Shown: positions 23,491 to 35,760 of the stretch, piece after piece
Layout of the letters: each line of letters starts with the position of its first letter
Position numbering within the stretch: the first letter of the stretch is position 1
NCBI GenBank assembly: GCA_040768245.1
Contig: JAXGNA010000010.1
Span: forward strand, 2,372-66,371
DNA length: 64,000 nt
Direction: 5' to 3'
Source: Methanomassiliicoccales archaeon
GTDB lineage: Archaea > Thermoplasmatota > Thermoplasmata > Methanomassiliicoccales > UBA472
Translations under genes and position numbers: made by a program
Notes under the pieces: model-generated
What the model was told of the DNA's origin: nothing
Database searches by the model: none
Seen by the model: the letters and a program-made list of their open reading frames with translations, nothing else

Positions 23491-24192
23491 ATGGAAGGGG
23501 ATAGAGCGCAAGGCACCGAAATGGAACGGATCCCGTCAGGCATACCGGGTCTGGACGAGCTCATCGAGAACGGTTTTCCGTTCCCATCGGTGATATTGGT
23601 ATCAGGAGCGACAGGGACCGGGAAGACCACGTTCTGCCTGCGTTTCCTCTGTCAAGGGGCGGAGCGGGGGGAGCGAGGACTTTTCTTCACCACTCTCAGC
23701 GAACCGGTTCACTGGATGCTCCGCTTCTCCTCGCAGTTCGGCTTCATGCGCCCGGAGTACATCGACCAGGACATCGTGTACGTGGACCTGGGCGACCTGA
23801 TCAGGTCCGGGGACCACGACAAGATCTTGGAAACCATCGACCGCAGCATCGCGGAGGTCATGCCGCAGCGCATAGTGATCGACCCCATCACCGTGGTGGG
23901 AGAGATGCTCAAGGAGGATTACCGCAGCTTCCTGTTCGACCTGACCAACCATCTCAAGCACTGGAACGCCACCACCCTGGTCACCGGGGAGGTCCGGCCC
24001 GGCGAGCTGTACCCCCCGGAGATCGCCTATACGGTCGATGGTATCGTTCTGCTCGTGCTAGGTGAGGAGCATGGGGACCGGCGGAAGTACCTGGAGGTGC
24101 TGAAAATGCGCGGGACCGCTCACAGCAGCGGCCGGCACTCCATCGACATCTCCCGCAAGGAGGGATTGGTGGTCCTCAAGGCCAGGTTCTGA
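23491..24192 (+). CDS. Single-domain KaiC/RAD55-like ATPase
   Basis: RIPSGIPGLDELIENG, GATGTGKTT, RIVIDP, VDGIV, LEVLKMRGT.H. Confidence 0.92.
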   Translation: MEGDRAQGTEMERIPSGIPGLDELIENGFPFPSVILVSGATGTGKTTFCLRFLCQGAERGERGLFFTTLSEPVHWMLRFSSQFGFMRPEYIDQDIVYVDLGDLIRSGDHDKILETIDRSIAEVMPQRIVIDPITVVGEMLKEDYRSFLFDLTNHLKHWNATTLVTGEVRPGELYPPEIAYTVDGIVLLVLGEEHGDRRKYLEVLKMRGTAHSSGRHSIDISRKEGLVVLKARF

Positions 24193-28579: not shown

Positions 28580-29746
28580 ATGCAACTCACCATGGAAGAA
28601 CAGGCCATGCTGGCCGGCAAGCAAGGCAAGGCCAAGCGCAAGGCCATGGAGCTTTTGGTTGCCCTCGGGGCCATATACGGTGCCGACCGCCTCATTCCCA
28701 TAACCTCCGCTCATCTTTCCGGCGTATCGTACAAGACCATCGGGGAAGGGGGGATCGATTTCTTGGAGGAGATGGCCTCGGACGGAAAGGTGGTCGTGCC
28801 CACCACCCTTAACCCCATGGGCATGGACGGGGAGCGGTGGAAGGAGATGGGGGTGGACCAGCATTTCGCCGAGAGGCAGCTGCATATCATCTCACTTTAC
28901 GAGAAGATGGGGGTGGAGGTCAACTGCACCTGCACCCCTTACCTGCTGACCAACCGGCCAAAGGTCGGGGACCACATCGCCTGGGCCGAGTCGTCCGCTC
29001 TCTCCTTCGCCAACTCCGTATTGGGTGCTCGCACCAACCGAGAAGGGGGACCGGGGGCGCTGGCCGCGGCCATCACCGGAAGGACGCCCAATTACGGTCT
29101 GCATCTGGACCAGAACCGCAGGCCCACCCATGTGGTGGAGGTCGAACCGGGGATAACCAAGGACGAATGGTCCCTGGTCGGACACGCCGTGGGCAGGAAG
29201 CTTGGCGCGTGCATTCCGTTCTTCCGCGGGCTGGGGAACGATGTCAACGGGCTCAAGTCGCTGGCCGCGGCCATGGCCGCCGCCGGTTCGGTCGCCCTTT
29301 TCATGGTGGAGAAGGTCACGCCGGAACAGCCTTCCTCGCTTGAGGGGCTGCCGGTGGTCAAGATCACCCGTCAGGATATCGAGGAAACGGTGAAGAGGTT
29401 GAGGACCGGGACCAGACCGGACCTCATCGCCATCGGCTGCCCCCATCTCTCGGAAAGGGAGATGAAGGAGCTGGCGGGATTCCTGGACGGAAGGAAGAAG
29501 AAAGGTGACGTGGAGGTGTGGTTCTGCACCTCAAAAGGTGTCTGGCTGCGCTGCCCCAAGGAGAGGGCGGTGCTGGAGCGCTTTGGCAAGGTCCTTTGCG
29601 ACACCTGCATGGTGGTGGCCCCCATCGAAGGGACGCACAAGGTCACCGCCAGCGATTCCGCCAAAGCGTGCGCCTATCTTCCCGGGCTGTGCTCGCAGAA
29701 GGTCTTCTGCGGCTCCCGGCGCGAGCTCATGGAGCTGATACTGTGA
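28580..29746 (+). CDS. Aconitase X catalytic subunit (probable phosphomevalonate dehydratase large subunit, DUF521)
   Basis: AHLSGVSY, TTLNP, CTCTPY, AWAESSA..FANS..GARTNREG, IGCPH, DTCMVVAP. Confidence 0.92.
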   Translation: MQLTMEEQAMLAGKQGKAKRKAMELLVALGAIYGADRLIPITSAHLSGVSYKTIGEGGIDFLEEMASDGKVVVPTTLNPMGMDGERWKEMGVDQHFAERQLHIISLYEKMGVEVNCTCTPYLLTNRPKVGDHIAWAESSALSFANSVLGARTNREGGPGALAAAITGRTPNYGLHLDQNRRPTHVVEVEPGITKDEWSLVGHAVGRKLGACIPFFRGLGNDVNGLKSLAAAMAAAGSVALFMVEKVTPEQPSSLEGLPVVKITRQDIEETVKRLRTGTRPDLIAIGCPHLSEREMKELAGFLDGRKKKGDVEVWFCTSKGVWLRCPKERAVLERFGKVLCDTCMVVAPIEGTHKVTASDSAKACAYLPGLCSQKVFCGSRRELMELIL

Positions 29747-30516
29747 AGCTGAAAGGACGAGAGATTTTCAAGGGAAGGGCGATCGGCCGGCTCCTGGTAC
29801 TTGACGAGGCGTTCAGTTTCCTGGGTGGAGTGGACCCTAAGACCGGACTGCTGACCGTGGCCTCCGGCCGGGAGGGGGAGAGCGTCGAGAACCGCATCCT
29901 GGTGTTCCCGCACGGTAAAGGTTCCACGGTCGGTTCGTACACCATCATGGACCTGAAGAAGAACGGTCATCTGCCGGCGGCCATCGTGAACGCCCAGGCC
30001 GAGACGATCGTGGCCACCGGCGCGGTCATGGCCGGGGTGCCCATGATCGACTCCATCGACCTGTCCTTGCTGAGGGATGGCGACCGGGCGGTGGTCATCG
30101 GGGACGGCCTGGACATGATGGACCTGGTGGAGAAGAAGGTGGTCACCTGCGTGTTGCGCCGAAAGGGAAAGATGCTCATCCTGAAACGCAGTCAGAAGGT
30201 GGGGACCAACAAGGGCAAGTGGGCGGCGGTAAGCGGTTACATTGAGCGTGGGGAGAGGCCGGAGGAGACCGCCCTGAAGGAGGTGGCCGAGGAGACCGGG
30301 ATCTCCACCGCTCGCCTGGAGGGTAGGGCGGAGACCCTGCGTATTCGCGATGGAACTTACGTCTGGAGCATCTACCCTTTCCTGTTCGAGGTGGGCGACG
30401 AGGAGGTCAGGCTGGACTGGGAGCACACCGAGTGCGCCTGGGTCGGCGCGGACGAGCTCCAGGGCTACGATACCGTCCCTGGCTTCAGCAAGGTGCTGGA
30501 GGCGCTGGGACTATAG
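29743..30516 (+). CDS. Aconitase X swivel subunit (DUF126) fused to a C-terminal NUDIX hydrolase
   Basis: GTG start overlapping the upstream stop. SFLGGVDP.TG and GKGSTVGSY, then Nudix box GYIERGERPEETALKEVAEETG and LDWEH. Confidence 0.9.
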   Translation: MKLKGREIFKGRAIGRLLVLDEAFSFLGGVDPKTGLLTVASGREGESVENRILVFPHGKGSTVGSYTIMDLKKNGHLPAAIVNAQAETIVATGAVMAGVPMIDSIDLSLLRDGDRAVVIGDGLDMMDLVEKKVVTCVLRRKGKMLILKRSQKVGTNKGKWAAVSGYIERGERPEETALKEVAEETGISTARLEGRAETLRIRDGTYVWSIYPFLFEVGDEEVRLDWEHTECAWVGADELQGYDTVPGFSKVLEALGL

Positions 30517-33500
30517 TGTCCCGTCCACTTCCTTCTCCAGCAGGTTCAGCTCGTTGGCGTCCAGGGTGGATGGGTTCAGCACCATCATCATGATGGAGTT
30601 GTTTATGGCCACCTGGTCCCTCAACGACTGGACGAAGCGCAGCACGGTGAGGAAGTTATTGTTGGTGATCAGATACTCCAGACCATCCAGCAGCACCACC
30701 CCCTGGCCCTGGGTAAGGAACTGTTCCAGGGAATAGTTCAGCTTCTCCAGGTCCTTGGGGCGCAGGCTGTCCTCCTTGCCCACGTTGCTCAGCCAGACGA
30801 TCGGCGTCTCCCCGAGTTCGTACTTGCCACGGATCTTGACCGGGTAGTTGCGGGTGATGCAGAATCCCCGTTTCCCCTTCTTCAGCTGTTCCATGAACAG
30901 CTCGTAGGAACGGTCCGAGCGGTCGTCCTTGATCAGGTAGCTGTACCCGTCCTGTAATCCCTGCGGCTTGGGCGCTTCCGCCTCCTCCTCCACCGCCTCA
31001 ATGCGCAGCGATGTGCCGCAGGAAGGGCAGTTCAGGTCCTTGGCGGTGACCTCCCGTCCGCACTTGGCGCAGGTGGAGCAGCGTTGGAAGCCTCCCTCGG
31101 CCACGTACTTGAGTATCTCGTCGATGGTCTTGCTTCCCAGCCCGGGAACGTTCTTCAGCTCGTCCCTATCGGCCGCCTGCAGTCTGTCCAGGGAATCATA
31201 GCCAGCGTCGTATAGCATCTCCGCCTTGAGCTCGTTCATCCTAGGTATCCGCAGGAGGTAGGGCGTCATCTCCGCCTTGTCCATGGTCTTGCCGGTCCCC
31301 TCCGGGACGGCCTTGCAGACCTCGGCCGTACGATCGGAATGATGCAGCGCCCGGCGAACCTCGGCCTTGGGCAGTTTGGTGATCTCCTCCACCTTGTCCT
31401 CGCCCAGCTGCTTGAGGTCGGCCTCGGAGCGGACGCCGGCGTCCACCAGGGACTCGGCGGCCTTGGCGGTTATCCCGGGTATCTTGGCCAGTTCCTTGAT
31501 GGAATCCTTGAGGTTCATGGAGGAGACGCCTATCTCCACCTTCTCGCCCTCGATCTCCCACTTTCCGACCTGGTCGCCATGGACCTCCATGACCAGCTCC
31601 ATGGACTTGGAGCGCACCTCGGACATGATGTGCTGCTTCCACATCTTGATGTACTCGGCGAGCTTGACGTCGGCGCGGACCTCCACCTTGACGAACTCCT
31701 CGACGTCAAGTTTCATCTCCTTGCGGGTCTGCTGCACCCGGCGGATGATCTCCCTGGAGAAGCCCTCGGCCTCGATCTCCCGGGTGACCTCGAAGTCCAG
31801 ATACAGCTCGCCGCCGCTGAAGGTGGCGGCGTAGACGTCCTTTGGCAAAGAGACTGTGAAGGAGACCATGTTCGGCTCGATCTTGACCAGCTGCCCCTCA
31901 ATGCCTAGCGAATACTCTCCACGCTGCATGCTCTCCTTGATCAGACCGGCCGGCCGGCTCTGCAGCAGCACCGCGATCTTGGAGGCCCATTGCCTATAGA
32001 CCTTCCCGATGGCCATGGGGTTCGGGACCACGTTGAGCACGGTCTCCGACCACTCCTCGCCAGTGCCTACGTACTCCACCTCCTTGACGTTGGCCTGGGA
32101 CTTGAGTATGTCCTCCAGGGCACGCAATGAGAGCAGCGTGTCGTTGCTGTCGACCTTGATCACCACCCTCTTCATCGGCCAGCGCAGCTTGACGTTCTTC
32201 AGCTGCCTTTCCCGGGTGACGGTCTCCACGATCTCCTGGACCATGGACATCGCCTTCTCCAAGCGCTCGTCCACCTTGGTCAGGTCGCTGGTCGGCCAGT
32301 CCATCATGTGCACCGACGGTTTGGAGCCGTCCATGTGCTGGTAGATCTCCTCTGCCAGGTGCGGGCATATGGGGGCCAGCAAAAGTGTGGTCTCCATTAT
32401 CGCGTCGTAGAGCGTGCGATAGGCGGCCAGCTTGCCGGCGTCGCCCTCCTCGCTCCACATGCGGTCACGAATAAGTCTGACGTACCATCTGGACAGGTCG
32501 TCAAGTATGTACTCTTCGAGCGCCCTCCCGGCCTTGTGCAGCTCCAGGGCGTTCACCTGGCGGGTGAACTCGTTCTTGAGCTTCTCGGTCCGAGATATTA
32601 GCCAGACGTCCTCCTGGTTAAGATGTGCCCGCACCGCCTCCCTGGTGATGCGCTGCGGCTCGAAATGATCGATCGCCATGTAAGTGGTGGCGAAGTTGAC
32701 CACGTTCCAGAGCACGTTCAGCGTCTTGCGGGCGTTCTTGACCCCCTCCATCTGGAACGGGATGTCCTCCCACGGTGCGGAGGTCTTCAGCAGATAGAAG
32801 CGCAGGGCGTCCGCGCCGTGCTCCTTGATCACCTTTCCCGGTTCCACGACGTTGCCCTTGCTCTTGGACATCGGCTGGCCCTGACCGTCCAGCATCCAGC
32901 CGTGCATCAGCACCGATTCGTAAGGAGCTCTGCCGAAGGCGATGACCCCGGCCGCGAGCTGTGAATAGAACCATCCTCGCGTTTGATCGTGGGCCTCCAC
33001 GATGAACTTGGCCGGCCACAATCGTTCGAAGGCGTCCCGCTTCTTGGGGAAGCCCAGCTGCGCCCAGGAGGCCACGGCGGAATCGAACCATACGTCCAGG
33101 ACGTCCGGCACCCGGCCCATCTTGCCACCGCACTTCGGGCAGACCAGCTTGACCGAGTCGATCCAGGGGCGATGCAGCTCCATGTCCTCCACGTAGCCTT
33201 CCGCGCCCTTGAGCTCATCGGCCATGCCGATGACCCTCATCTCCCCGCAGGAGCAGGTCCAGACCGGTATGGGTATTCCCCAGTACCGCTGCCGGGAGAT
33301 GCACCAGTCGCGGGCGTTCATGGCCCAGTCGTATTCCCGGGACGAGCCGGCCCAGTCCGGGGTCCAGCGGACCTTCTCGATCTCCTCCAGCATCTGGTTC
33401 TTGACCTGGGTGACCCGCAGGAACCACTGGTCGGTGGTCCTGAAGAGCACGGGCGATTTGCAGCGCCAGCAATGTCCGAAACGATGCTCTATGGTCCCGC

Positions 33501-34671
33501 TGAAGAACAGACGGTCATTGGCCTCCAGGTCCTTGAGCAGTTCCGGGTTGGCCTTCTTGATATGCATGCCCACGTACTTGCTTCCCACCAGGGGCGTGTA
33601 CACCCCCGTTTCGTCCACGGGGCAGAACGGTTCGAGCCCGAACTCCTTGCCCAGCTCGAAGTCCTCGGGGCCGTGGCCAGGGGCGATGTGCACCAGGCCG
33701 GTGTTGGAGGCCTCGACGGTCTTGGAGGGGAGCACCTTGTGCATCCACTTGCCGGTGGCCTGCGTCTGGTAAGGCACCTCGTCCACGAAGGGGGTGATGT
33801 ACTCCACCCCGACCAGGTCGTCTCCCTGGATGGTCTGCAGCACCTCGTACCTCTCCCAACCTCCCAGGTCCTTGATCTCCTCTTCCAGCCCCTTCATTAT
33901 GATCACCGTGTCGGTGACCCCTATCTTCCGGTAGCGGACCTTGACGTACTCGAAGTCCGGATGGGCGGCCACGGCGAGGTTCGCTGGCAGCGTCCAGGGG
34001 GTGGTGGTCCAAATCAGCAAAGAGACCTTGGGGTCATCCTTCAGGCGGAACTTGACGTATATGGACGGGTCCTTCTCGTCCCAGTAGTCGATCTCCGCCT
34101 CGGCCAGGGCGGTCTCGCAGCGCGGGCAGCCAGGAAGCACCCGGCTGGCGCTTATCAGCAGCCCTTTATCGTAAGCGCGCTTGAGCGTCCACCAGGCCGC
34201 CTCGATGTAGCCCGGGGTGATGGTGAGGTACGGCCGCTCCCAGTCGAACCACACGCCAAGCTCCTTGAAGTCGGCGTTCATCTGCTTCTGGAAGTCCAGG
34301 GCGAAGTTCTTGCAGGTGCCGACGAAGCGGTCGATGCCGTACTCCTCGATCTCCTTCTTGTTCTTCACGCCGATGGACTTCTCCACCTTGACCTCGATGG
34401 GCAGCCCATGCATGTCGTAACCAGGAGTGTCGGTTACGTTGAACCTCTGCATGCGCTTGAACCGGACGATCATGTCCTTGATCGTCTTGTTCATCGCCGT
34501 GCCCAGATGGATATATCCAGTGGTGTACGGGGGTCCGTCCACGAAATAGAAGTCCGGACCGGACGCCCGAAGTTCCTTGGTCTTCTTGTACGCGTCGGTC
34601 TCCGCCCAGAGGGCCTGCACCGACTTTTCCAGCGCGCTAGGGTTGTAACTGCCTTGGACCTGCTTTATCAT
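30511..34671 (-). CDS. ileS: Isoleucyl-tRNA synthetase with long C-terminal extension (HhH pairs, zinc ribbon, DUF835-like domain)
   Basis: DGPPY..G.IHLG, GYDMHGLPIE, WTTTPWTLP.N, GTG.VH.APGHG, DWCISRQRYWG, PMSKS; about 330 extra aa after the normal C-terminus. Confidence 0.96.
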   Translation of the reverse strand: MIKQVQGSYNPSALEKSVQALWAETDAYKKTKELRASGPDFYFVDGPPYTTGYIHLGTAMNKTIKDMIVRFKRMQRFNVTDTPGYDMHGLPIEVKVEKSIGVKNKKEIEEYGIDRFVGTCKNFALDFQKQMNADFKELGVWFDWERPYLTITPGYIEAAWWTLKRAYDKGLLISASRVLPGCPRCETALAEAEIDYWDEKDPSIYVKFRLKDDPKVSLLIWTTTPWTLPANLAVAAHPDFEYVKVRYRKIGVTDTVIIMKGLEEEIKDLGGWERYEVLQTIQGDDLVGVEYITPFVDEVPYQTQATGKWMHKVLPSKTVEASNTGLVHIAPGHGPEDFELGKEFGLEPFCPVDETGVYTPLVGSKYVGMHIKKANPELLKDLEANDRLFFSGTIEHRFGHCWRCKSPVLFRTTDQWFLRVTQVKNQMLEEIEKVRWTPDWAGSSREYDWAMNARDWCISRQRYWGIPIPVWTCSCGEMRVIGMADELKGAEGYVEDMELHRPWIDSVKLVCPKCGGKMGRVPDVLDVWFDSAVASWAQLGFPKKRDAFERLWPAKFIVEAHDQTRGWFYSQLAAGVIAFGRAPYESVLMHGWMLDGQGQPMSKSKGNVVEPGKVIKEHGADALRFYLLKTSAPWEDIPFQMEGVKNARKTLNVLWNVVNFATTYMAIDHFEPQRITREAVRAHLNQEDVWLISRTEKLKNEFTRQVNALELHKAGRALEEYILDDLSRWYVRLIRDRMWSEEGDAGKLAAYRTLYDAIMETTLLLAPICPHLAEEIYQHMDGSKPSVHMMDWPTSDLTKVDERLEKAMSMVQEIVETVTRERQLKNVKLRWPMKRVVIKVDSNDTLLSLRALEDILKSQANVKEVEYVGTGEEWSETVLNVVPNPMAIGKVYRQWASKIAVLLQSRPAGLIKESMQRGEYSLGIEGQLVKIEPNMVSFTVSLPKDVYAATFSGGELYLDFEVTREIEAEGFSREIIRRVQQTRKEMKLDVEEFVKVEVRADVKLAEYIKMWKQHIMSEVRSKSMELVMEVHGDQVGKWEIEGEKVEIGVSSMNLKDSIKELAKIPGITAKAAESLVDAGVRSEADLKQLGEDKVEEITKLPKAEVRRALHHSDRTAEVCKAVPEGTGKTMDKAEMTPYLLRIPRMNELKAEMLYDAGYDSLDRLQAADRDELKNVPGLGSKTIDEILKYVAEGGFQRCSTCAKCGREVTAKDLNCPSCGTSLRIEAVEEEAEAPKPQGLQDGYSYLIKDDRSDRSYELFMEQLKKGKRGFCITRNYPVKIRGKYELGETPIVWLSNVGKEDSLRPKDLEKLNYSLEQFLTQGQGVVLLDGLEYLITNNNFLTVLRFVQSLRDQVAINNSIMMMVLNPSTLDANELNLLEKEVDGTL

Positions 34672-34754
34672 CGCCGTCCCTTTAGGCCCCTATTGGCCAA
34701 CTTCCTTTTAAACCCGTTGGTCCTGGCTACACTTTTCTGCGGCATCCCGCAGGC

Positions 34755-35760
34755 TCAAAACATGTCGAGCCGCATTTTGGTCCTTCTTCGCTACTGAGGA
34801 GAACTTGTCCAACGCCCCGTTCCCGTTTCTCGGAGAACCCATACTCCCCGCAGAGCATGTCCAGCACCTTCTGGCGGTCAGGCTGGCTCCAGACCAGGCG
34901 ATAATCGTCGGTGCGTTCGTAGTCCAGGAAGATCGACCACCACCTTCTCCATCTCCCGTCCTCCATGCCCAGCGAGCGCAAGTGCGCCGGCCAGGGTCCC
35001 ATGCTGTTTGATCAGTTTTAGCGCCTTCTTCGGCCCGATGCCCATCACCCCGGGATTGAAGTCCGTACCCACCAGGATGCATAGGTCGACCAGCTGCTTT
35101 CCGTTCAGCCCCAAGGCGGACAGCGTCTCCTCGCGGTCGATGATCTGCATGCGAACCTCGCGGTACTCGTCCCTCCCGGGCATCTTGCGTCTTCCCGACA
35201 GGGGTAAGGTTCCTGACCAGCCGAGGCGCGCCGAACAGCAACGAATCGAAGTCCTGGGGAGGCCGAGGCCCAGACGTCGCCCTTGACGCACATGTGGGCG
35301 GCCTGCGCCTCCCCTTCCTCGGGGGCCTGCGCCACCGGTATGCCGAGATGGGTGAGCAGGATGCGCGACGATTCCACGATCTCGTTGGTGATGCGGGAGG
35401 ACTGGGTGGCCTTTGAATAGGCTCTCCGCACATCGCCCTCGGCCTTGGCCTGCTCCCATTCCTTCTTCGCCGCCTCCCTCCTTTCCCGGCGCTCCTCGGG
35501 ATGGTGGCACCTTCTTCTCCCGGCGGGATGCCATCGAACACCAGGCGGGCCGCAGACCCATCTCCATCAGGTTGGCGTTGCGGTTGAGCAGTCCCTCCAG
35601 GTGCGAGGTTATCCTACCCCGGGGGTCCATCAACGGGGTTCCGTCCCTTCATCACCGACAGGAACAGATCGCGTGGCGCCCTGGCCGCCGTCCTGCCCAT
35701 GAGGTCCCGCGGCTCCAGGTCCTTGGCCGTGACGAGGTCGGATAGGTTCCTCCCCGGGAA
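34755..35760 (-). pseudogene. fen: Flap endonuclease 1, broken by many indels (probably a sequence error, not a true pseudogene)
   Basis: Fragments in alternating frames: NLSDLV, GTPLMD..GRITSHL.GL, QAPEEGEAQAA, QDFDSLLFGAPRLVRNLT, LVDLCILVGTDFNPG..GIGPKKALKLIK, C-terminal PIP-like QMRLDMF*. Confidence 0.85.

Follow-up and report, generated by a model that had tools for sequence, protein, structure and literature searches.

Isoleucyl-tRNA synthetase gene with an extended reading frame

The DNA under study is a stretch of 64,000 nucleotides of contig JAXGNA010000010.1 from a Methanomassiliicoccales archaeon (the whole stretch is referred to below as the window). A single open frame on its minus strand was identified as ileS and is predicted to encode an isoleucyl-tRNA synthetase (IleRS) of approximately 155 kDa, with a C-terminal tail composed of helix-hairpin-helix (HhH) pairs, a zinc ribbon and a DUF835 domain. 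The total length of 1386 amino acids agrees with that given in an earlier note on this DNA. The gene and the parts of its product, with the evidence for each, are as follows:

30511..34671, minus strand: whole gene, IleRS-HhH-HhH-zinc ribbon-DUF835 (single open frame, 1386 amino acids plus stop)
31522..34671, minus strand: IleRS body, residues 1-1050, a Rossmann fold with CP1 editing domain, anticodon-binding domain and C-terminal DUF5915 (TIGR00392 and Pfam)
31327..31506, minus strand: first HhH pair, approximately residues 1056-1115 (HHH_5 and DNA_pol_lambd_f matches; helices in the model)
31093..31284, minus strand: second HhH pair, approximately residues 1130-1193 (HHH_5 at 1139-1187)
31009..31080, minus strand: Cys4 zinc ribbon CAKCG...CPSCG, residues 1198-1221 (C1201/C1204...C1215/C1218; alignment)
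30952..31008, minus strand: acidic low-complexity linker, residues 1222-1240 (charge; predicted local distance difference test (pLDDT) below 50 in the tail model)
30514..30951, minus strand: DUF835, inactivated KaiC/RecA-like domain, residues 1241-1386 (Pfam 1251-1381, E 1.8e-34)

The IleRS body matched the TIGR00392 equivalog with 947.4 bits against a cut-off of 621.4, and Pfam placed tRNA-synt_1 at residues 18-635, Anticodon_1 at 688-837 and DUF5915 at 853-1050 of the 1386-residue protein. Isoleucine-tRNA ligases are defined as a family by the HIGH and KMSKS signatures of class I and by the editing motifs of CP1; in the window enzyme HIGH (as HLGT), KMSKS (as PMSKS), CP1 (WTTTPWT, GHGPED) and DQTRGWF were the same as in the tail-less archaeal-type orthologues of family f7 and of genus g13 of family f6 (also TIGR00392). 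The bodies of these orthologues are 55-61% identical to that of the window protein and end in the same C-terminal DUF5915, but they lack its 336-residue HhH/zinc ribbon/DUF835 extension. No second IleRS above the TIGR00392 cut-off was found in the assembly (1.31 Mb, 81% complete), the next matches being ValRS- or LeuRS-like with fewer than 300 bits. Judged by these motifs and counts, the ileS gene is single and catalytically intact.

Beyond '...WEIEGEKVEIGV' the IleRS frame was found to run on for 336 residues, while the tail-less orthologue L020 stops at '..WDIEGEKVVIALTPSK', the residue at which the window tail starts; the position taken in the earlier note as the usual end of IleRS is exactly where tail-less orthologues terminate. 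The domain calls of that note were also correct, with Pfam HHH_5 in two stretches, a Cys4 ribbon and DUF835 above threshold.

Integrity of the fusion

In principle, the fusion could result from misassembly, from a frameshift or from a stop codon missed between two genes, and the adjacent FEN-1-like gene, which is split over several frames, indicates that local errors or pseudogenes exist in this assembly. The uniform codon usage reported in the earlier note was borne out across the junction, third-position GC content (GC3) being 0.88 for core codons and 0.86 for tail codons, and relative synonymous codon usage (RSCU) of core and tail correlating at r = 0.93, compared to 0.91 between the two halves of the core. 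A stretch from the junction region was found in 15 studies of anaerobic digesters, wastewater and activated sludge, in 20 public runs altogether, of which 6 are RNA libraries. Contigs from 4 runs (4 studies; 2 DNA and 2 RNA libraries) span the junction near position 31520 with zero indels and zero joints; RNA libraries may hold DNA, and contigs over the junction are no proof of one transcript. Their extents in the window are:

30594-32557: contig X13 (RNA)
31445-32505: contig X6 (RNA), 0 differences
31017-32167: contig X3 (DNA)
30400-32475: contig X7 (DNA)

The earlier note had named an assembly error as the outcome which would overturn the fusion, with a separate frame starting near 'MNLKDS'. 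In the alignment, relatives were found to have SLHFK or SLNLK at that site; the Met is not kept and there is therefore no conserved internal start. The same architecture was present in hundreds of independent assemblies, including the single-contig genomes G021, G075 and G348 and an NCBI entry named Methanomassiliicoccus luminyensis. Against the junction contigs of four independent studies, this recurrence, the uniform codon usage and the absence of a conserved internal start, the artefact explanation is refuted and its probability is negligible. IleRS-DUF835 is almost certainly a real fused and live enzyme which serves as the housekeeping IleRS of the organism.

Broken frames were observed at two loci. 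The FEN-1/XPG-like gene directly upstream of ileS (34727-35700, minus strand) is spread over at least three reading frames, with XPG_I matches in the open reading frames at 35105-35431 and 34878-35633 and the C-terminal part in 34727-35002, and is either a pseudogene or the product of a local assembly indel error. The fused ileS of genome G022 (L022/L025, G022:C4:133882-138113) is likewise interrupted, its three frames encoding 450, 725 and 382 amino acids, which reflects either assembly frameshifts or a pseudogene.

The DUF835 domain

DUF835 (PF05763) was matched with 118.8 bits against a gathering threshold of 33.1, over model positions 4-135 of 136. A search of the Protein Data Bank (PDB) with a profile of the tail returned HhH relatives only and no match for DUF835. 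An AlphaFold2 model of the domain, built from a 40-sequence alignment, had a pLDDT of 94.2 and a predicted template modelling score (pTM) of 0.89. When this model was compared to the PDB using Foldseek, 188 matches were obtained at E<=1e-3, the best being ArlH/FlaH (4yds, TM 0.68), PH0284 (2dr3, TM 0.75) and many KaiC structures (TM-scores query-normalised). Using hhalign, the domain was also aligned with 10 KaiC-like ATPase domains of the same genome (84%, E 7.4e-6, 117 columns), and the earlier note's view of DUF835 as an inactivated KaiC-like domain agrees with both comparisons.

In the hhalign alignment, 'DR' of the loop 'KDDRSDRS' stands opposite the Walker A GK(T), and all 40 aligned DUF835 domains are without GK[ST]. 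The strand which carries the catalytic Glu ('TLEE') aligns with 'CITRNYP', where Glu is absent; the 'GFCITR' singled out in the earlier note is not a degenerate P-loop but this catalytic-Glu strand of KaiC, the P-loop position being that of 'KDDRSDRS'. The sole ATPase residue retained is the Walker B Asp, in 'VVLLDGLEYL'. The core fold (TM 0.68-0.75) and the Walker B Asp are common to the window domain and to the KaiC-like ATPases (ArlH/FlaH, PH0284, KaiC), whereas the window domain is of approximately 150 residues and not approximately 230. Because the P-loop and the catalytic Glu are missing, DUF835 is not predicted to be an ATPase; sequence and model alike describe a shortened KaiC/RecA core which would be unable to bind or hydrolyse ATP in the usual manner, and the tail domain is very probably a dead KaiC-like domain. 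The iKaiC class was reportedly defined by Makarova et al. in 2017, who are also said to have proposed an archaeal KaiC-centred signalling network. The label 'DUF835 (iKaiC)' in Galperin et al. 2018 (PMC5847659) is in agreement with an ATPase-dead assignment.

The residues conserved throughout the DUF835 family (the R in TR..P, WLS, DG.EY and NP) lie at the C-terminal ends of strands, the nucleotide-binding place of RecA-type folds, and the Walker B Asp is kept. Both observations would suit a small-molecule or phospho-ligand sensor which tunes IleRS allosterically and does so with no protein partner. Related inactivated KaiC-like domains, the MEDS domains, have been proposed to be ligand sensors, and MEDS is listed as iKaiC in PMC5847659. 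A tether which is long, disordered and variable in length would be a poor route for allostery, and the dead paralogues described below keep no activity to tune; a ligand sensor of this kind is considered improbable.

Six other DUF835 proteins were found in the genome (152-369 amino acids), all much more divergent, and DUF835 was on no other synthetase of this genome. A second DUF835 architecture was observed in L070 (G018:C28; 725 amino acids), in which an N-terminal region is followed by a DnaA-type AAA+ domain (Bac_DnaA, E 6e-59) and a C-terminal DUF835; frames of 708-758 amino acids with this DUF835 subtype occur in 7 relatives. The genome's own L002 (L002:817-1923; 369 amino acids) has a DUF835 related to that of L070, with the AAA+ match absent.

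The tether between synthetase and DUF835

HHH_5 (PF14520) was matched with 59.2 bits (gathering threshold 27) in two stretches, the best at residues 1139-1187, and DNA_pol_lambd_f at 1059-1092. In comparison to PDB profiles, HhH pair 1 resembled NusA AR domains, Pol beta and the RadA N-terminal domain, and pair 2 resembled Hel308 domain 5 (E 7e-8) and the Rad51/RadA N-terminal domain (E 3e-6); a sequence resemblance of the pairs to haloarchaeal L32e was also obtained. The CAKCG...CPSCG ribbon gave weak rubredoxin-like and RpoP matches. It was present in families f1 and f5 and absent in f2, f3 and f4, while an extra ribbon between the HhH pairs occurs in other genera and is absent from the genus of the window. 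With net charges from -13 to +5, the HhH modules range from neutral to acidic (isoelectric points in the window of 6.7 for pair 1 and 4.6 for pair 2), and the linker has a net charge of -4 over residues 1225-1240, falling to as low as -11 in relatives.

The composition of the tether was found to vary widely. The M. luminyensis protein (P0070) has one weak HhH and zero ribbons, while forms of 1639-2921 amino acids have added HhH, double zinc ribbons and tetratricopeptide (TPR) repeats. In every fused protein read DUF835 is C-terminal, at the end of a tether of approximately 110 residues (P0070) to approximately 1730 residues (L071), measured on Pfam coordinates. The giant forms observed were L071 (G124:C27; 2921 amino acids), L072 (G045:C3; 2335 amino acids) and L074 (G088:C12; 1639 amino acids), whose tethers hold three HhH modules, several double zinc ribbons and TPR repeats, with DUF835 still terminal.

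Two HhH pairs and a zinc ribbon could make up a cis-acting appendage which binds tRNA or other nucleic acid and raises the affinity for tRNA-Ile, appended tRNA-binding domains on synthetases being an established theme (e.g. the EMAPII/Trbp111 type), and the earlier note had likewise described added nucleic-acid-binding modules. The modules are neutral to acidic, poorly conserved (37-41% identity), variable in number and gained or lost between lineages: P0070 has a single weak HhH and no ribbon, ribbon B is missing from f2-f4, and tail-less orthologues cope with no appendage at all. The conserved payload is DUF835 rather than HhH. As judged from charge and conservation, a nucleic-acid-binding role of the HhH pairs and ribbon is doubtful, and a tRNA-binding appendage is an improbable explanation of the tail. 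We propose instead that HhH pairs, zinc ribbons and, in other forms, TPR repeats would act as spacer or adaptor modules.

The whole-tail model resembled beads on a string (pLDDT 72, pTM 0.38, linkers below 50) and is of mediocre quality, informative for module order only; that order, an (HhH)2 domain followed by a RecA-type core, is the order of RadA/Rad51. A degenerate RadA/Rad51-like module, which would tie IleRS to DNA or to recombination or replication proteins, could be read from the Foldseek search of the whole tail, where Rad51/RadA filaments came first (E 7e-5 and weaker, 265-308 aligned columns), from the match of HhH pair 2 to the RadA/Rad51 N-domain, and from the fusion of another DUF835 protein of relatives (L070) to a DnaA-type AAA+ ATPase. 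The whole-tail TM-scores were low (0.17-0.29), however, and DUF835 alone ranked KaiC and ArlH above Rad51. The tail also differs from RadA/Rad51 in having no ATPase motifs and in the zinc ribbon and acidic linker between its modules, and its HhH modules are not basic. A link of this kind to DNA is very improbable.

Conservation, phylogeny and distribution of the tail

Mean pairwise identity was calculated for 14 full-length fused proteins from 5 families. DUF835 was the most conserved region (0.73), followed by the IleRS core (0.68), with values of 0.37 and 0.41 for HhH pairs 1 and 2 and of 0.26-0.36 for the linkers; by this measure the tail DUF835 is under strong purifying selection. The fused DUF835 domains form one slowly evolving, short-branched clade (14/14, support 0.82), the sister group of which consists of small stand-alone paralogues of family f5. 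An IleRS tree (20 sequences, 1046 columns) was calculated with tail-bearing enzymes from other families as the root. The f7 and f6-g13 enzymes, which have no tail, formed the deepest branches of the order, inside the tail-bearing outgroup, and it therefore appears that the tail was lost there.

An identity of 0.73 is at the level of a housekeeping interface, which would suit contact with a universally conserved partner more than with KaiC paralogues of particular lineages. The tail could accordingly recruit IleRS to a translation assembly (a multi-synthetase complex, the ribosome or an elongation factor) with KaiC signalling uninvolved. The flexible tether (pTM 0.38) and the acidic, NusA-AR-like (HhH)2 modules, which bind protein elsewhere, are in keeping with such a role, as is the C-terminal extension of eukaryotic IleRS, which serves complex assembly. 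Set against this, f7 and f6-g13 lost the tail yet keep the whole translation apparatus, zero other synthetases of this genome have DUF835, and the family is otherwise on signalling-type proteins (PMC5847659). Recruitment to a translation assembly is judged quite unlikely.

The fusion was found in 28 of 38 relatives, in 26 with the tail in frames of at least 1163 amino acids and in 2 (G030, G022) in cut or frameshifted frames. The tail was not found in the other 10 of these 38, namely G005, G015, G016 and G038 (79-93% complete), G027, G031 and G035 (f6, genus g13), and G028, G032 and G036 (f7). A protein search limited to lengths of 762-2426 amino acids yielded 328 clusters (90% identity), of which the best 120 all had both PF00133 and PF05763; these 120 include the NCBI entry named M. 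luminyensis (P0070, 1301 amino acids). DUF835 domains which match that of the window at E<=1e-40 were present in 148 of 300 sampled genomes of the class, and in 68 of the 198 high-quality ones. The length of IleRS across the class had been raised in the earlier note; the best-matching DUF835 rows lay mostly in frames of 1300-1800 amino acids, and in frames of up to 2929.

A search for stand-alone HhH-DUF835 proteins gave 157 matches, most of them on short contigs and many with DUF5915, and these therefore look like cut fusions; a few (P0142, P0156, P0166) lie on long contigs. No description of the fusion was found among the papers listed in literature searches on DUF835/iKaiC, KaiC-like ATPases and IleRS, supplements and Makarova et al. 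2017 excepted, and the latter may already mention it.

Tail-bearing IleRS-like paralogues in family f21

A canonical tail-less IleRS was found in all four f21 genomes (903-931 bits, TIGR00392), in frames of 1056-1058 amino acids in three of them and of 818 in G073, where the match starts at contig base 14. All four also have a divergent IleRS-like paralogue which falls below the cut-off (324-363 bits), in a frame of 1313-1466 amino acids bearing a DUF835 match. In the two paralogues read (L075 and L076), HIGH, KMSKS, TTTPWT, GHG..D and DQxRGWF were all lost, with DUF835 44-54% and the body 28-29% identical to the window protein. The f21 paralogues have the same architecture and DUF835 subfamily as the window protein; they differ from it in their lost catalytic and editing motifs and in having a canonical IleRS alongside, whereas the window protein is the sole intact enzyme.

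The motif losses indicate that the tail has been retained on catalytically dead IleRS paralogues, and its retention there, beside a normal IleRS, points to a second, non-catalytic function. The simplest reading is that, after another IleRS took over charging in f21, the fused gene was kept for a job which needs scaffold and tail but not catalysis, and that in the window organism one protein must serve both charging and this second job. The earlier note had wired the synthetase into KaiC-type signalling; a second, non-enzymatic role fits the dead tail-bearing paralogues of f21.

The canonical f21 enzyme L077 (G063:C26) was observed to have a classical HIGH signature and to be only 37% identical to the window enzyme; it is therefore of a different IleRS lineage and may represent a replacement. 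At three of three loci (L078, L079, L080) the dead paralogue is followed by a ketopantoate reductase gene (PanE/ApbA) and then by a convergent gene for a UPF0004/radical-SAM/TRAM MiaB-like methylthiotransferase, which may be plain synteny as all three loci are from one family. A 615-residue HhH and zinc-ribbon protein is encoded upstream of the dead paralogue in L079.

The IleRS body could, beyond this, double as the sensor input for amino-acid or tRNA status, with occupancy by tRNA-Ile or Ile reported through the dead-KaiC output to KaiC-like hubs. This would be a GCN2-like logic, under which the fused copy of f21, with a second IleRS acquired, would have become a pure sensor, or pseudo-synthetase. 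We know of no RelA/SpoT-type stringent response in archaea. Such a sensor is unlikely, and the uncharged-tRNA sensing or stringent-like link suggested in the earlier note is speculation.

Co-occurrence with KaiC-like ATPases and gene neighbourhood

The genome (1.3 Mb) gave 10 PF06745 matches at E<=2e-14, 8 of them at E<=1e-25. KaiC-like genes were surveyed in 89 genomes of the order, a PF06745 match at E<=1e-25 being counted as strong. Strong KaiC-like genes were present in 23/23 genomes of f1, 1/1 of f2, 4/4 of f3, 1/1 of f4 and 10/10 of f5, in 20/24 of f6 (0/4 in genus g13) and in 0/25 of f7. No tail was found in any of 35 f7 genomes, nor in the 4 genomes of g13 which were tested (G027, G031, G035 and G332). 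Elsewhere in f6 it was present in G330, G348 and G345. Genus g102 gave the following:

G351: 6 strong KaiC-like genes; tail fused, in a 1439-residue frame
G353: 6 strong KaiC-like genes; tail match in a 237-residue frame
G336: 1 strong KaiC-like gene; tail not found
G343: 1 strong KaiC-like gene; tail not found
G350 (79% complete): 5 strong KaiC-like genes; tail not found
G357 (97% complete, 6% contamination): 5 strong KaiC-like genes; tail not found

All tail-bearing genomes for which a KaiC count was available had 4-10 strong KaiC-like genes, and the tail was never found with 0-1. As this pattern comes from few independent events in reduced genomes, the link between tail and KaiC is suggestive only.

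The surroundings of ileS (AcnX, AcnX-swivel/NUDIX, the broken FEN-1-like gene, Rpe, Usp, MFS and an RNase Z-like gene) were not informative. A KaiC-like ATPase gene was observed at 23530-24180 on the plus strand (PF06745, E 1.9e-44, 255-residue frame), 6.3 kb from the end of ileS, and the KaiC-ileS spacing is repeated in G006 of the same genus (C5:88533-89183, with the tail at C5:81763-82212). At 28580-30516 on the plus strand an aconitase X gene (388 amino acids) is followed by an open reading frame which joins the AcnX swivel and NUDIX domains (332 amino acids as listed); its listed start overlaps the AcnX gene, and the true start is therefore probably further downstream.

Proposed role of IleRS-DUF835

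A second, non-catalytic docking or output role for IleRS-DUF835 is probable. DUF835 would act in it jointly with the IleRS body, to which tRNA-Ile, Ile and ATP bind. DUF835 would be the docking or output module, the part which it plays at the C-terminal end of archaeal signalling proteins with REC and PAS domains. The likeliest partners would be the KaiC-like ATPases and DUF835 proteins of the same genomes, and a partner from among them would couple the location, activity or occupancy of IleRS to the KaiC/DUF835 network; the placing of the partner within this network is tentative. Taken as a whole, a live IleRS with a tethered, dead KaiC-like docking or output domain and a second function is the reading which we favour, with moderate confidence.

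Several observations weigh against it. The conserved DUF835 residues at the C-terminal ends of strands fit a ligand pocket as well as a protein interface, and nothing in these sequence comparisons ties the tail to aminoacylation. No IleRS fusion was found in families f15, f19 and f28 despite 3-11 DUF835 genes, in a tally which includes one unpublished genome (G133) on which no claim rests, and the root of the IleRS tree is an assumption. The earlier note's link to KaiC signalling is in part upheld, in that the co-occurrence fits it; this co-occurrence is one-way and comes from few independent events, and G357, with 5 strong KaiC-like genes and no tail found, is a counter-example. The joint loss of tail and KaiC could be unspecific, since small host-associated genomes shed many genes together. 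No KaiC-like or DUF835 gene was found as a conserved neighbour, either at the live gene or at the dead paralogues, nor was any partner, signal or other conserved neighbour of IleRS-DUF835 found.

Comparison with known systems and significance

A C-terminal DUF835 behind an input-type domain is likewise found in the REC-DUF835 and REC-PAS-PAS-DUF835 regulators, which occur in Methanomicrobia and Thermoplasmata according to Galperin et al. 2018 (PMC5847659). In the window protein, by comparison, the N-terminal partner is an essential enzyme of 1050 residues, and the fused DUF835 belongs to a slowly evolving clade of its own. KaiC-like proteins match DUF835 better than does RadA/Rad51, the other family with this order of modules. 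GCN2, with its HisRS-like domain, and HisZ join a synthetase or synthetase-like body to a regulatory function, the pseudo-synthetase of GCN2 binding uncharged tRNA; synthetase class and output domain differ from those of the window protein, whose IleRS body is predicted still to be a working enzyme. Domains appended to synthetases are a classic path to regulatory and scaffolding roles of translation enzymes in eukaryotes, and clear archaeal examples are, to our knowledge, rare.

In IleRS-DUF835 an essential enzyme bears a domain from the least understood archaeal signalling family, which comprises the KaiC-like ATPases together with relatives of theirs that are inactivated. About half of the sampled genomes of the class have the tail, conserved at a housekeeping level, and it has been kept where the enzyme part died. 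M. luminyensis, which carries the fusion according to NCBI entry P0070, could serve for experiments provided that it can be grown, and the fusion offers a testable entry to what DUF835/iKaiC domains bind and to how archaea couple amino-acid and tRNA status to regulation.

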